Part shown: positions 5,443 through 43,200 of the stretch, in pieces
How positions within the stretch are numbered: position 1 is the first letter of the stretch
How the letters are laid out: every line of letters begins with the position of its first letter
Assembly (NCBI GenBank): GCA_051959955.1
Contig: JBQCEU010000100.1
Span: 1 to 50,316 of the forward strand
Reading direction: 5' to 3'
Origin: Terriglobales bacterium
GTDB lineage: Bacteria > Acidobacteriota > Terriglobia > Terriglobales > SCQP01
Length of the DNA stretch: 50,316 nt
Program-made: the position numbers and the translations under genes
Notes under the pieces: model-generated
Seen by the model: the letters and a program-made list of their open reading frames with translations, nothing else
Told to the model about the DNA's origin: nothing
Database searches by the model: none

Positions 5443-5847
5443 CTAGGCGCGCGCCTCGTCCTCGGCTTTGTACATGTACTTGATGATGGCTTTGTAGATC
5501 AGCAGGTTGGGCTCGCCGGTGCGATGGACCTTGATGCAGTGGCGGTCATACCACTCGATCACCCCGCGGACCCGCTCGCCATCGCGCAGCACCAGGACCA
5601 TTTCGGTCTTGGACTGCATCTGCTTCAAGAAATAAAAGCTCTCGGCGTTGGTGGTTTCCGGCGGGACCGGCTTTTTGGGCAGGCGGGCCGGGGGCAGGGT
5701 GGGGGTGGCGGCGAGAGCGGGGGCGGCCGCCGCGCCGCGGCTCAACTGACCACGAACATCGGCGAGAGAGGGGCGTATCAGTTTCCGGTTGCTAACCAGT
5801 TCGGAGTCGGGCGAGCGGCGGGCAGTGGTGTCGTTCAGCGAGGCCAT
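5443..5847 (-). CDS. Hfq-like (Sm fold) RNA chaperone with long N-terminal extension
   Basis: C-terminal ~60 aa ESFYFLKQMQSKTEMVLVLRDGERVRGVIEWYDRHCIKV...LLIYKAIIKY follows the Hfq Sm1/Sm2 pattern. ATG 5847 is preceded by GAGGAG. Confidence 0.7.
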   Translation of the reverse strand: MASLNDTTARRSPDSELVSNRKLIRPSLADVRGQLSRGAAAAPALAATPTLPPARLPKKPVPPETTNAESFYFLKQMQSKTEMVLVLRDGERVRGVIEWYDRHCIKVHRTGEPNLLIYKAIIKYMYKAEDEARA

Positions 5848-20933: not shown

Positions 20934-21713
20934 TTACTTGCCGCCGGCGACGACGAGGTCGTTTTTCACTCCCAGCACGCCCGGCAGGCCGCGCACCGCA
21001 TTCCCCGCCACGGATTTATCCACCTGGGTGTCAACCACGCCCACCAAGGTGACGCGTCCGTTCTCCACGAGGATGCGGATGGGGTGCGCGGGATCATTGG
21101 CGTAGCGGATCATGGAGGGATTGCCGTAGATGGCGCGGGCCGCGGCCAGCCGGATCTGGTCATCCATGGGCGACAGCGGCGCCACTTCGATGTTGTCAAT
21201 CACGCCTTTGACGCCGGTGGTATCTACGATGATGTCCACGGCGGAGTCGCGGTCGGGGTAGTCACGGACCTGCCCTCCCACCGTGACCACACCGTTATTC
21301 ACGCCCACGGTCAGGGCGTTGAAGGTCTGGCCCATGCCCATGCGGTCGTAGGTGAGGCGGTCGGCGATTTCACGTTTTAGCTGGGCATCGGGGACGGCTT
21401 CGGTGTGCACGGCAATCTGGTTCACCACGCCGTCCACGCCGTCCACGCCGCGCGCCTGATTGGCCGCTTCCAGCTTGGCCCGCAGGTTGGGCACGGCGCC
21501 GGTGAGTTTCGCCACCCGGTCGTCCACCTGGACCCGCACCTGGCCCATGTCCTTCTTTTTGGCGATCTTCTGCTGCACCTCGGCCTGCAGCCGTTGATCC
21601 TGAACCGCCGAGGCCTGGGCGGCGGGGTTGGCCTGGGCGGTGGCTATGCTCACCGCCAGCAGCAAGCTCAACCCCAGCAGCAACCATTGCGGAGCACGCT
21701 CCTTGAGTTCCAT
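20934..21713 (-). CDS. Exported triple-BON-domain (OsmY-like) protein
   Basis: Signal peptide and three BON repeats (LTG..GVDGVVNQI; VTVGG..GVKGVIDNI; VTLVG..GVLGVKNDL). Confidence 0.88.
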   Translation of the reverse strand: MELKERAPQWLLLGLSLLLAVSIATAQANPAAQASAVQDQRLQAEVQQKIAKKKDMGQVRVQVDDRVAKLTGAVPNLRAKLEAANQARGVDGVDGVVNQIAVHTEAVPDAQLKREIADRLTYDRMGMGQTFNALTVGVNNGVVTVGGQVRDYPDRDSAVDIIVDTTGVKGVIDNIEVAPLSPMDDQIRLAAARAIYGNPSMIRYANDPAHPIRILVENGRVTLVGVVDTQVDKSVAGNAVRGLPGVLGVKNDLVVAGGK

Positions 21714-21735
21714 GCACCCACCCCCTCTATTCCTT

Positions 21736-21764
21736 TGGATGGATGAACTTCCCCCGGCGTTGCA
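21736..21764 (-). promoter_or_regulatory. Putative alternative-sigma promoter TGCAAC-N17-CATCCA upstream of the BON gene
   Basis: Same motif and spacing as upstream of osmC and of the 41925 RNA candidate. Confidence 0.55.
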
Positions 21765-21765
21765 A

Positions 21766-40091: not shown

Positions 40092-41555
40092 ATGGACGAA
40101 TTGCATGCGCCGCTGCCGCCCGCTTCCCCCGCCGCCGGACCGGCGGGGTTGAGGTGGTGGGTGCTGGTGGTAGTGCGGGTGGTGGGCCTATGCGGCGGTT
40201 GGGCGTTGGCGCGGTGGAGGAATCCCAGCCATGGCAGCGCGCCGGCGCTCACCCAGTCGCTGGCGGCGGCGGAGAGCCGCGTGGCGCCGGCGGTGGTCAC
40301 CATCGCGGTGCAGAGCAGCCGGCCGGTGCGTGGCCGTTTTCGCCAACCGGCCAATCGCAAGGCTCCGGACTTCCCCCGGCTGGATCACAGTCAAGGCTCG
40401 GGCGTGATCGTGGATGCGCGCGGCTACGTGCTTACCAATCGCCATGTGGTGCGGCGCGCGGTGCGCATCCAAGTCTCGGTGGCAGGCGATTCCCGCCCCT
40501 ACTTCGCGCGCTTGGTAGGAGAAGATCCCGACACGGACCTGGCGCTGCTCAAGATTGATGCCACGCACCCGCTGCCCACGGTGCGGTTCGGTGATTCCGC
40601 GCGCCTGGCGGTGGGCGACTGGGTGGTGGCGATTGGCAGCCCGTTCGGCCTGGACGGCACGGTGACCGCCGGCATTATCAGCTCCCTCCATCGGTCGGTG
40701 GATCCATCGAAGCAATTCGAAAGTTTCATTCAAACCGACGCGCCCATCAACCCGGGCAACAGCGGTGGGCCGCTGGTGGATCTCCGCGGGGAGGTGATCG
40801 GCATCAACACTGCCATCTACACCGAATCGGATGGCTATCAGGGCATCGGCTTCGCGCTGCCCAGCGATCTGGTTGCGCACGTCATCCCGGCGCTCCTGCA
40901 GCATGGGAAGGTGACCCGGGGTTCCATCGGTGTTTACTTCGAGAGCCAGCTTGACCCAGCCGTGCGCCGCGTTTATGGGCTGCCGAGTGGCGTTCCCCTG
41001 ACACAAGTTGCGGCCAAGGGCCCGGCGGCCAGCGCCGGCCTGAAAGCCGGAGATGTCATCACGTCGCTTGATCAGCAGCCGGTCGCGGATGGCTCGACGC
41101 TCATGCAGAGGATCGAGTTCCTGCCGGTCGGGACTTCGCTGCGGGTAGGCTACGAACGCGATGGTCAGAGCCGCACCGCGACGGTGCGGGTTGCCGATCG
41201 TGACCAGCTTTACCCGCCGCCCGCGGGCGACCGGATCGGAGCCGTAGCGGCGTCGGCGCGGACGCAGCCCAATCTGGGCATGGTGTTGGAAGACTCCACC
41301 AAGGCGCCGGTGGAGGTGATTGGGGTCACCCCGGATTCGTTCGCTGACCAGATCGGGGTTGAGGCGGGAGACGAGATCCTGCAATGCAACCGCCAGCCGG
41401 TCGGCAGCCGCCGTGCTTTCACGGCTTTGATCCGGTCGTTGCGGCCGGGCGCCGATGTGGCGATACTGGTGGCACGCCACGACGATCAGGGCGGGGTGAG
41501 CCGCTGGTTGTTGGGCGGTACACTGCCGCCGCCACTGGCGGTCAACTTGCCATGA
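40092..41555 (+). CDS. HtrA/DegP-family serine protease with two PDZ domains
   Basis: Catalytic triad motifs LTNRHVV, DTDLAL and GNSGGPL; N-terminal hydrophobic segment; two PDZ-like GD(V/E)I segments. Confidence 0.93.
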
Positions 41556-41899
41556 ATTTCCTGCTCTATGCGGTTCTTGTCGCTGCTCCCTGGCAGCACC
41601 CGAAGCCCCATCCCAAGCGAGCCCGGAAGGCCGTCCATCATGCGGCACCCAAGCCAGAGACCATGAGCGGGCAGCGGGCGGCGGAGATTCAGCAGGCGCT
41701 GATCGGGGCCGGGTACCTCAAAGTGGCCAGCGGTCAATGGGATGCGGCCACAGCCGCTGCCATGAAGAAATACCAGGCCGATCACCACTGGCAGACGCGG
41801 TTTGCGCCTGATGCGCGGGCGCTGCTGGCGCTGGGGCTGGTGCATCCCGCGGCCAGCACCGCCGTGGCGTCCAACGGCGGGGGCAAGCCGCAACCTTAG
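41552..41899 (+). CDS. Small exported peptidoglycan-binding-domain protein
   Basis: ATG overlaps the htrA stop; EIQQALIGAGYL..GQWDAATAAAMKKYQADH..PDARALLALGL. Confidence 0.8.
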   Translation: MNFLLYAVLVAAPWQHPKPHPKRARKAVHHAAPKPETMSGQRAAEIQQALIGAGYLKVASGQWDAATAAAMKKYQADHHWQTRFAPDARALLALGLVHPAASTAVASNGGGKPQP

Positions 41900-41917
41900 G
41901 CCCAGGGCGGGCATCCC
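41890..41917 (+). promoter_or_regulatory. Putative alternative-sigma promoter GCAAC-N17-CATCCC
   Basis: Elements and spacing identical to the osmC upstream motif; no plus-strand gene downstream, only the structured element starting 7 nt later. Confidence 0.6.
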
Positions 41918-41924
41918 AAATACT

Positions 41925-42062
41925 GGCCCCCCTCAAGCACCGCCGCGTGCTGTGGCCGCCGGCGAGGCCGGATGCCTCACCAGCAGAGCCCCGAAACGGC
42001 GGTGCCGCCGTGGGGCGGCCGCCGGTGGGTCGCGCCTTCGGGCAGCGGCCAAGAGGGGGGCC
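41925..42062 (+). ncRNA. Candidate structured non-coding RNA (~138 nt), family not recognised
   Basis: 10-bp terminal stem, 9-bp and 5-bp nested stems, a cUUCGg-capped hairpin and its own promoter-like motif; lies between convergent genes. Confidence 0.6.
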
Positions 42063-42078
42063 GAATAGGAACAGGTTG

Positions 42079-42651
42079 TCAGGCGGCGGGCTGGCTGGCT
42101 TGCGGCAACACCGCGCCGCGAATCCCGATGCGGTGCTGATAGACGAGGGTGCCGCCGAGCTGGGCCGCGGTCGCGGCCAGGGCGAAGCCGGCCAAGGCCG
42201 AACGCCGACCATGGCCAGGCCGCCGGCGACGCAAGAAGGAGAGGGTGAAGGCGCTCACCCCCAGCACGTTCACGAGGCCATGCACCAGGCCAATGCGCCG
42301 CACTTCACGGTCGGTGATCTGGTGCCAGTCGGCCAGCCCGGTGACTGCGGCGGCGAGGGCGCCGGCCAAACCGATGCCGATCGCTCCGCGGGCAGCGCTG
42401 GCCCAAGGCTGCCGCGGCTGGCGGCCGGCCATGAGATCGAAAATCAGAGCCGTGGTCCAAGCGCCCAAGGGCACATCGGTGAGCATGGCGTGCAGGGGGT
42501 GGCCGAGCGGTTCACCATGGGCCCAGGCACGGAGCTGATCGCGCCGCGGACCGAGGCTCTCGATCACCGTGTCCAACCCGCGATGCAGGCCATCGGCTAC
42601 GGGATCAATCCATTGCTGGCGGGCAGCAGTTTGGGCAAGCGTGCGGGTCAT
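42079..42651 (-). CDS. DUF2231-like membrane protein
   Basis: HGEPLGHPLHAMLTDVPLGAW, TGLADW, GLVHG and LGGTLVY motifs. Confidence 0.8.
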   Translation of the reverse strand: MTRTLAQTAARQQWIDPVADGLHRGLDTVIESLGPRRDQLRAWAHGEPLGHPLHAMLTDVPLGAWTTALIFDLMAGRQPRQPWASAARGAIGIGLAGALAAAVTGLADWHQITDREVRRIGLVHGLVNVLGVSAFTLSFLRRRRPGHGRRSALAGFALAATAAQLGGTLVYQHRIGIRGAVLPQASQPAA

Positions 42652-42701
42652 AGGCTATGCGATTGCCCGGCGTGACCGCGAGTTGGCCGAGGCTGCGGCC
42701 G

Positions 42702-43148
42702 TTAGGCCGTTTTTCGCTCGCCCGGAGACGCTACCAGAATGGCTGAGAGGCGGATCGGCGTGGCGGCGAGGGCGCGTGAGACCGGGCAGTTGCGCCGGGC
42801 TTCCTCGGTAACCTGCTGGAACTGCTCTTCGCTGATGCCCCGCACCGCGGCTTCGCAGGCCAGGTCTATGGCGCTGATGGCGTAGGCGCCGTCCTGCAGG
42901 CCAAAATGCACCTGCGCCCGGGTGAAGATGTGGAGTGGTTCGGCGTGGGCACGGCTGAGAGCCACGGCCAAGGCCATGGAGTAACAGCCGGCGTGGGCGG
43001 CGCCCAGCAGCTCCTCTGGATTGGTGCCGGCGCCGGTTTCCATGCGGGAAGCATAGGTGAACGGTCCCTGGTAATCGGCAAAGTGCATGGTCCCCTTGCC
43101 CTGCTTCAAATCGCCCCACCACTGGGCCTCGGCCGTCCGTACCTGCAT
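42702..43148 (-). CDS. osmC: OsmC-family peroxiredoxin
   Basis: [35 protein letters not shown] and CPVSRAL; AGGAGG RBS before ATG 43148. Confidence 0.92.
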
Positions 43149-43173
43149 GGCCAACCTCCTTTTCCCTGCCATG

Positions 43174-43200
43174 GGATGTCTTTTGAGCGGCGACTGTTGC
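43174..43200 (-). promoter_or_regulatory. Putative alternative-sigma promoter GCAAC-N17-CATCC upstream of osmC
   Basis: The minus strand reads GCAACagtcgccgctcaaaagaCATCCc. Confidence 0.6.

Follow-up and report, generated by a model that had tools for sequence, protein, structure and literature searches.

The candidate gene for a small structured RNA described here lies in a contig of 50,316 nucleotides from a Terriglobales bacterium of the phylum Acidobacteriota (GenBank assembly GCA_051959955.1, contig JBQCEU010000100.1, positions 1 to 50,316 of the forward strand), the whole of which is referred to as the window. The element (41925-42062, plus strand) is found inside a gap of 179 nt between two convergent genes, the plus-strand gene PGB, named after the PG_binding_1 domain of its product, and a minus-strand gene for a DUF2231 membrane protein. 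We propose, with about even confidence, that the element encodes a stress-induced small RNA which has its own promoter and belongs to a regulon of an extracytoplasmic function (ECF) sigma factor that would also drive osmC-DUF2231 and a BON-domain gene. The proposal builds on the conservation of the element in a sister species, on a base-paired structure whose variation fits the plus strand, and on a promoter motif that recurs before osmC and before BON genes. From the sequence we infer the transcription of the candidate RNA, its ends, the assignment of the sigma factor and the mode of action. The sequence family is new, while its kind, the alternative-sigma-dependent small RNA, is already known; the label "undescribed system" in a preliminary description of this DNA is too strong for what is one candidate small RNA gene in a stress regulon.

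Results

Selection on the element and phylogenetic range

The element and its copy in the sister species are identical at 94 of 114 aligned columns (82.5%), compared with 128 of 283 (45%) at the fourfold-degenerate sites of htrA, PGB and DUF2231. The difference (binomial P ~3e-16) indicates that the element is kept by purifying selection. Of the unpaired columns, 20/26 are identical. Conservation falls off past the closing helix P1 on the 3' side, and on the 5' side only the core of the -10-like motif and the CAAC of the -35-like motif stay conserved.

For searches of the genome, the genus, the family and the order we used a covariance model, R1, that was built for this analysis. The element is a single copy in its own genome, where BLAST (E <= 0.001) and R1 each match nothing else. 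With R1 it was found in 2 of 16 genus genomes and in 2 of 151 sampled order genomes, a narrow distribution that consists of this genome and one sister species. Over the family, 3 of 28 genomes gave a match at E <= 0.1, and the third of these (G042, E 0.03) was rejected as a chance match inside an open reading frame (ORF) of 898 codons. In the sister genome (G002), matches were restricted to two contigs, both with the syntenic locus. The preliminary description had asked for homologues in Acidobacteriota; the search yielded this syntenic copy, but no wide distribution. A pattern scan of genome contigs gave 2 records, both of the sister type, and a pattern scan of metagenomes matched 3 contigs, two of which carry near-identical sister-type copies. 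The third (L031) was dismissed as a chance match in a coding region, by eye a glutamate-synthase-like gene. When the gap was compared by BLAST with 41 relatives, the matches outside the sister genome were GC-rich, at most 58 nt long and had E values of at least 7e-5, and were treated as chance. In G002 the whole locus is present twice (G002:C48 and G002:C229, loci L012 and L023), and the two element copies have 5 differences over 115 positions; the likelier cause is a mixture of strains in the assembly, not a duplication.

Predicted structure and strand

The predicted consensus fold is a three-way junction formed by P1, a long arm P2-P3-P4 that ends in a YGGAU loop, and the hairpin P5 (Table 1). 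P1 is kept in all 5 copies (98% of cells paired), and the lone minimum free energy (MFE) folds of the three sister copies that were folded either match the consensus fold or extend it slightly. In the sister copies, P2 carries one G-C to A-U and two C-G to U·G changes, and P4 one compensatory G-C to A-U change plus one C-G to U·G change. The insertion of ~23 nt that is specific to this genome is a partial duplicate of 41946-41962 (direct repeat, 82% identical) and can make an extra hairpin at the junction in a constrained fold.

Much of the structure that had been drawn from the letters alone was recovered, namely the perfect 10-bp inverted repeat (GGCCCCCCTC at 41925-34 and GAGGGGGGCC at 42053-62) whose first base lies 7 nt past the promoter-like motif, the 9-bp stem (41937-45/41997-42005), the GAGGC/GCCUC hairpin (41964-78) and the capped hairpin (42028-50). 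Other parts had to be revised. The 5-bp stem 41948-52/41981-85 is present, but its ensemble probability is 0.03, it is unconserved, and P3 replaces it in the consensus. The complementarity behind the suggested pseudoknot (GGCCGCC/GGCGGCC) also exists, but its 3' partner lies inside the ~23-nt stretch that the sister species lacks. Both are unconserved in the sister copies and were rejected as core features. The UUCG cap is found in this genome; the sister copies have UUUG or UUUA in its place. The 3' strand of P2 (41996-42005) has a second perfect complement within the last part of PGB (41856-41865), so that a read-through mRNA could fold differently from a transcript starting at P1.

The plus strand folds with an MFE of -90.5 kcal/mol (z -3.43), none of 200 dinucleotide shuffles folds as well as the element, and the sister-species copies reach z values of -3.9 to -6.3. 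The fold is thus beyond chance by the shuffling check that had been suggested. The accompanying warning that high GC inflates chance pairing was justified for the closing stem. Taken by itself, this stem could be due to chance, for 401 nt contain two perfect inverted repeats of 10 nt, where we estimate ~1 at 78% GC.

Several observations uphold the earlier preference for the plus strand. The three sister-type copies that were folded on both strands are more stable on the plus strand by 5-9.4 kcal/mol. At six positions the lineages differ by C-G to U·G, and these wobbles would be A·C mismatches on the minus strand; two further differences between the two lineages are compensatory G-C to A-U changes. 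None of the 7 polymorphic sites among the 4 sister-type copies disrupts a plus-strand pair (simulated P 0.001-0.009). Three of them are C/U opposite G and four lie in loops, bulges or junctions, and all 3 that fall in pairs become mismatches on the minus strand. In a strain variant of this genome, 3 of 4 changes keep or create plus-strand pairs; 41982 A>G turns the lone C·A mismatch of P3 into C-G, and 41978 C>T leaves a G·U pair in P4. On the minus strand, more pairs are broken in the alignment fold, and its covariation term is positive. A selected plus-strand RNA structure is likely, though it is not proven by covariation.

A promoter motif shared with osmC and BON genes

The motif GCAAC-N17-CATCCC at 41890-41917, noted in the preliminary description, was confirmed by reading the sequence and by pattern search. 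In this strict form it occurs twice in the window, before the element and before osmC. The sister species has ACAAC at the -35-like site, and both the N17 spacing and the distance of 7 nt from the -10-like motif to P1 are identical in the two species. The glutamine codon of PGB that gives CAAC is the minority codon CAA in both species (31 of 146 glutamine codons in 9 window genes), which lends weak support.

Beyond the element, osmC neighbours DUF2231 in 4 genus loci, and in each of them [GA]CAAC-N17-CATC precedes osmC; two of these sites (G005, G012) come from genomes flagged as unpublished. The window also holds an OsmY-like BON-domain gene (20934-21713, minus strand; NCBIfam OsmY E 5e-10) with TGCAAC-N17-CATCCA 22 nt ahead of its ATG, in a true intergenic gap (window 20934-21765). 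Among the genus loci examined, TGCAAC-N16/17-CATC[CT]CA or its CGTC variant stands before the BON gene in 13/16, a count that leaves out one further match in G008. Of the 16 genus genomes, 14 contain a core ECF sigma gene (G000:C348:6966-7604) with 84-95% identity, and G[GA]CAACC-N16/17-GCGTCAAAGGGAGTAGC was found upstream of it in 12 of 14 loci (G000:C348:6880-7604, locus L051). This gene looks like one under an autoregulated ECF promoter, and it is our tentative candidate for the sigma factor of the regulon. Genomes flagged as unpublished (G003, G004, G005, G010 and G012) supply 5 of the 16 BON loci and 5 of the 14 sigma loci.

A weight matrix was trained on 12 BON and osmC sites of relatives, without any element site and without sites from this genome; 3 of the 12 come from flagged genomes (G004, G005, G012), and G023, which is also flagged, was only searched. 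The matrix gives 12.5 bits to the site before the element, compared with 12.1 bits for the osmC site of the same genome, and 16.05 and 13.3 bits to the sites of the sister copies. The per-position frequencies in the genome of scores of 12.5, 16.05 and 13.3 bits are 5.6e-5, 5.2e-6 and 3.6e-5, respectively. Of the 6,160,840 positions in the genome, 346 score as high as the element's site, and by rough arithmetic the chance of such a site within the few dozen positions upstream of P1 is ~1e-3.

The predicted promoter is labelled ECF-type on account of the conserved AAC in its -35 element and of the motif of the sigma gene itself. The element's motif may resemble published ECF consensus sequences. 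A term search of the text of the ECF classification PMC7826278, which gives its promoter logos in figures and supplements, yielded no match for the motif. The view that the motif shared with osmC is a promoter has gained strength from its conservation before osmC, before BON genes and, in the CGTC form, before ECF sigma genes, and osmC and the OsmY-like BON gene define a small putative stress regulon. As in alternative-sigma-dependent small RNAs, the motif stands at the right distance upstream of the predicted 5' end and is common to the element and protein genes of the regulon. A regulon drawn from genome-wide counts was rejected, as these mainly reflect codon periodicity and most matches are coding, such as a top match on contig C98 in a dxr-like gene.

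Genomic context

Table 1 Position of the element's predicted parts, of the promoter-like motifs and of the neighbouring genes in the window
Feature	Position	Strand	Remark
-35-like GCAAC of candidate ECF-type promoter	41890..41894	+	Overlaps final PGB codons (Gln-Pro-stop)
-10-like CATCCCA	41912..41918	+	CATCTCA in sister copies, fitting CATC[CT]CA before BON genes
Predicted transcription start	41922..41925	+	6-9 nt after CATC; from promoter geometry
P1 5' strand, closing helix	41925..41934	+	Pairs with 42053-42062; pair probability 0.98-1.0
P2 5' strand	41937..41945	+	Pairs with 41997-42005; perfect 9 bp
P3 5' strand GGCCGCCGG	41954..41962	+	Pairs with 41980-41990 across two bulges
P4 hairpin GAGGC-CGGAU-GCCUC	41964..41978	+	Apical loop YGGAU conserved
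P3 3' strand	41980..41990	+	Inside invariant block GCAGAGCCCCGAA
P2 3' strand	41997..42005	+	Partner of 41937-41945
~23-nt insertion specific to this genome	42006..42027	+	Absent from all 4 sister-type copies
P5 hairpin	42028..42050	+	UUCG loop here; 100% of cells paired; one U·G to C-G change
P1 3' strand	42053..42062	+	No U-tract after it
PG_binding_1-domain gene (PGB)	41552..41899	+	Final gene of dnaG-rpoD-htrA-PGB row; start inferred
DUF2231 membrane-protein gene	42079..42651	-	E 2.4e-18; convergent to PGB, 3' of osmC
osmC	42702-43148	-	OsmC Pfam E 1.8e-14; precedes DUF2231
GCAAC-N17-CATCCC before osmC	43173..43200	-	25 nt ahead of osmC start codon

PGB (Pfam PG_binding_1 E 2.4e-5) ends with a TAG stop at 41897-99, and its likely ATG (41552) overlaps the stop codon of htrA as ATGA (41552-41555), an overlap that is also found in the sister species. 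The tight packing of dnaG, rpoD, htrA and PGB on one strand suggests one operon. The neighbours osmC, DUF2231 and htrA had been named correctly from the beginning. The next plus-strand gene encodes an aldehyde dehydrogenase (ORF open from 43087, likely ATG ~43237) and begins ~1.2 kb from the element, past two antisense genes on the minus strand. In the sister type (loci L010, L032 and L033) there is no osmC between DUF2231 and the aldehyde dehydrogenase gene, and only a degenerate motif stands upstream of DUF2231; in G004, a member of the genus, the full motif is located directly before DUF2231. The relative G014 (G014:C12:20900-21301, locus L019) has a DUF2231 gene that is broken by two stops (1 TGA, 1 TAA) and is probably a pseudogene.

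At least half of the window's sampled words occur in each of 18 DNA sequencing runs and small shares in 2 RNA runs, and these 20 runs belong to 11 studies, all on soil, rhizosphere or root material.

Known classes considered for the element

Rfam 15 (4227 models, including 6S, SRP, tmRNA, Acido-type motifs and ribozymes) gave 0 matches at the gathering score in the whole window. At E <= 10, three weak matches (13.8-15.6 bits) were obtained between 41700 and 42300, none of which overlaps 41925-42062, and the sister copy gave 1 weak match outside the element. That the element could not be matched to tRNA, SRP, 6S, tmRNA or known ribozyme cores in the preliminary description is borne out by the Rfam scans of both species. 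An intrinsic (Rho-independent) terminator was rejected, as no terminator-like site was called at the element and no T-run follows P1 on either strand. A riboswitch or other cis-acting 5' leader is ruled out, in agreement with the preliminary description, because no sense gene lies directly downstream.

The element is also not a small-protein gene, since no ORF is conserved in frame between the species. The shared frame from ATG 41972 agrees for ~11 codons, every difference in it changes the amino acid, and beyond these codons the ~23-nt indel puts the two species out of frame, which bears out the earlier remark that there is no credible ORF. An Hfq-dependent trans-acting module was rejected because the element lacks a U tail and conserves hardly any single-stranded stretch; Hfq genes are present. 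Besides the main Hfq gene on contig C40, a second, weak match to the Hfq family (31.3 bits) is located at 5464-5631 on the minus strand of the window. No CsrA gene and no Ro60/TROVE gene were found in this 94%-complete genome. A CsrA sponge of the CsrB/RsmZ type was rejected, since only one GGAUG loop is conserved and CsrA was not found, and so was a Y RNA, given that neither a TROVE partner nor an Rfam match to Y RNA was found.

Discussion

In our proposal, a small structured RNA is transcribed from the plus strand of the element, which would be a young gene restricted to one lineage. An ECF-type sigma factor would bring RNA polymerase to GCAAC-N17-CATCCCA, which overlaps the stop codon of PGB; the candidate for this factor is the conserved gene G000:C348:6966-7604, whose own putative promoter reads GCAACC-N16/17-CGTCAAA. 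With a start at about 41922-41925, the first 10 nt of the RNA would pair with 42053-62 and close a GC-rich three-way junction, to which this genome would add a further hairpin from its ~23-nt duplication. Together with osmC-DUF2231 and the OsmY-like BON protein, the RNA may be induced within a regulon that responds to envelope or osmotic stress. The closed fold would define and protect both RNA ends. Since a U-tract terminator is lacking, the 3' end would be made by trimming as far as P1 or by termination that needs no U-tract. The predicted fold leaves few single-stranded bases, chiefly the conserved GGAUG apical loop, so that the RNA would rather act via a protein partner or a loop-loop contact than via a long linear seed.

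A number of observations weigh against this proposal. The -10 of the sigma gene reads CGTC and not CATC, which is why the sigma assignment is tentative. Genome-wide counts of the motif show no excess of N17 over N14 or N20 and are dominated by codon periodicity; the strict motif occurs 12 times compared with ~6 expected. The -35 element of the candidate promoter falls in coding sequence. Unlike classic Hfq-dependent small RNAs, the element has neither a U-tract terminator nor an obvious single-stranded seed. In this genome the minus strand folds slightly better than the plus strand (-95.3 kcal/mol, z -4.41). The covariation check that had been suggested was not significant: the 2 pairs with double changes are equalled in 173/500 shuffles, because there are effectively only two lineages, and the pairs were counted on the very sequences from which the consensus structure had been derived. 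Contigs from the RNA runs cover only 42096-42238 and 42319-42544 inside DUF2231, and none lies on the element. These contigs are of low depth, show neither RNA ends nor strand, and easily lose small structured RNAs; we read their coverage as bearing neither for nor against transcription of the element. Three genus members keep the htrA-PGB/DUF2231 arrangement without the element, their gaps being 6, 88 and 462 nt of unrelated sequence, and for two of them (G005 and G012) this absence rests on genomes flagged as unpublished. This genome and the sister species are mutual closest relatives among those searched (BON protein identity 88% compared with at most 67%, DUF2231 71% compared with at most 64%). 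Together with the absence from syntenic members of the genus, this leads us to regard the element as a recent gain in their common lineage, loss elsewhere being also possible.

The main rival explanation is that the structure belongs to the 3' untranslated region (UTR) of the dnaG-rpoD-htrA-PGB transcript. There it would be made by read-through and serve as a stabiliser that blocks exonucleases, as a terminator that works without a U-tract and protects the convergent DUF2231 gene, or as both, and the promoter-like motif would be unused or incidental. The element begins 25 nt past the PGB stop codon on the same strand, a terminator is expected between convergent genes, and the plus-strand wobbles fit a 3' UTR equally well. 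In addition, no sigma-70-type promoter was found in the region, and no discrete transcript of the element emerges from the RNA-run contigs. U-tract-less ("I-shaped") hairpin terminators are described for GC-rich bacteria, and the element resembles them in its very stable GC helix at the end of an operon and in the missing U-run. These are single hairpins, whereas the element has 115-138 nt in a three-way junction, conserved loops and a conserved promoter motif ahead. A single hairpin would do for either role, yet a junction of 115 nt is conserved down to its unpaired columns, and one relative copes with a gap of 6 nt and no structure. The absence of a U-tract counts against a terminator as well. 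Although the two species have diverged to 45% identity at neutral sites, both retain the motif, with N17 between its elements and 7 nt from it to P1. We consider the 3' UTR explanation possible, if unlikely. It appears somewhat more doubtful to us that the locus is a cis-antisense device. In that case the promoter would fire toward osmC-DUF2231, and the element would be the 5' domain of a longer antisense RNA or would pair with the 3' UTR of that operon, tuning its mRNA through RNase III-type cleavage or transcriptional interference. The promoter does face this operon, whose own promoter carries the same motif, and no terminator follows P1. A terminator-like hairpin with a T-run exists on the plus strand at 42695-42710, at the far end of DUF2231 and overlapping the osmC stop codon, where it would stop a plus-strand RNA running antisense across DUF2231; the minus strand also folds stably. 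A conserved fold is not required for antisense action, but the element has one, and it is strand-specific. Inspection of the sister-species sequence showed no T-run terminator at the far end of DUF2231, and with 2 terminator-like sites found compared with 0.6 expected in shuffles, the site at 42695 may be chance.

We hold it to be very improbable that the minus strand is the functional one, as a 3' UTR or terminator of the DUF2231 mRNA. Its better folding energy in this genome and its start only 17 nt beyond the DUF2231 stop codon would fit such a role. The plus strand is the more stable one in all three sister-type copies folded both ways, however, and the wobbles, the paired polymorphisms and the minus-strand alignment fold speak for the plus strand. 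Equally improbable in our view is a locus without RNA function, that is, a relic of a mobile element with inverted repeats or a set of tolerated GC-rich slippage products. The element shares with repetitive extragenic palindromic (REP) sequences, bacterial interspersed mosaic elements (BIME) and miniature inverted-repeat transposable elements (MITE) its GC-rich sequence, its inverted-repeat ends (10 bp), its position in a convergent gap and its presence or absence among close relatives, in that two species carry it and syntenic relatives do not. It also has an internal duplication, and at such a GC content chance alone should yield perfect inverted repeats of 10 nt. Unlike such elements, it is a single copy by BLAST and by the covariance model, it occurs in the sister species only at the syntenic site, and its internal sequence is under selection, as judged by its identity relative to neutral sites. 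By inspection, no direct repeat abuts the 10-bp inverted ends in either species, and hence no target-site duplication was seen. A dispersed REP, BIME or MITE repeat, which the preliminary description had named as a possible refutation, is ruled out on these grounds.

Returning to a small RNA with its own promoter, the closest parallels are the sigma(E)-dependent small RNAs MicA, RybB and MicL of enterobacteria, which are transcribed from ECF promoters. As in these, the candidate non-coding RNA lies directly behind an ECF-type promoter and would belong to an envelope or osmotic stress regulon; it adjoins a protease gene of the htrA/degP type, and its promoter, like that of MicL, is located in the 3' end of a protein-coding gene. 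There is no sequence or structural similarity to MicA, RybB or MicL (no Rfam match), the organism belongs to another phylum, and the predicted 5' end is locked in P1 and is not a free seed; a Rho-independent terminator with a U tail is missing. Type I small RNAs derived from 3' UTRs, such as DapZ, share the terminator of the parent mRNA and act through Hfq-bound seeds. The candidate resembles them in having its promoter around the stop codon of the gene upstream and its RNA in the would-be 3' UTR, and differs in that neither terminator nor seed is evident in a candidate known from sequence alone. With 6S RNA, Y RNA and CsrB/RsmZ it has in common that the ends are paired in a long terminal helix, that most bases are paired and that an apical loop containing GGA is conserved. 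In contrast to 6S RNA, no central bubble appears in the predicted folds and no Rfam match was obtained, and in contrast to Y RNA and CsrB/RsmZ, the partner genes for Ro/TROVE and CsrA were not found and a single GGA loop is conserved.

A bolder version of the proposal would be that a newborn gene of one genus was recruited to the ECF stress regulon and encodes an RNA whose end-closed, nearly fully paired junction, instead of pairing through a seed, serves as decoy or scaffold for some protein, for instance a nuclease, a chaperone or the polymerase with its sigma factor; this would make it a new class of RNA and the first defined regulatory RNA of the phylum. We regard this as speculation and rather doubtful.

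In conclusion, the locus offers a testable pair, a conserved promoter and a young structured RNA, in Acidobacteriota, an abundant phylum of soil. Among the texts reached by a full-text literature search, there was no paper on small RNAs, promoter maps or a mapped alternative-sigma promoter of Acidobacteriota. The distribution of the element is narrow, the organisms are uncultured, and its transcription is predicted from sequence. The promoter half of the pair would be GCAAC-N16/17-C(A/G)TC with a small putative regulon that comprises the OsmY-like BON protein, OsmC-DUF2231 and the sigma gene itself. The RNA half would be a young structured RNA that was apparently added to this stress regulon in two sister species, and may serve as a clean example of a non-coding RNA gene arising in a gap that relatives lack.

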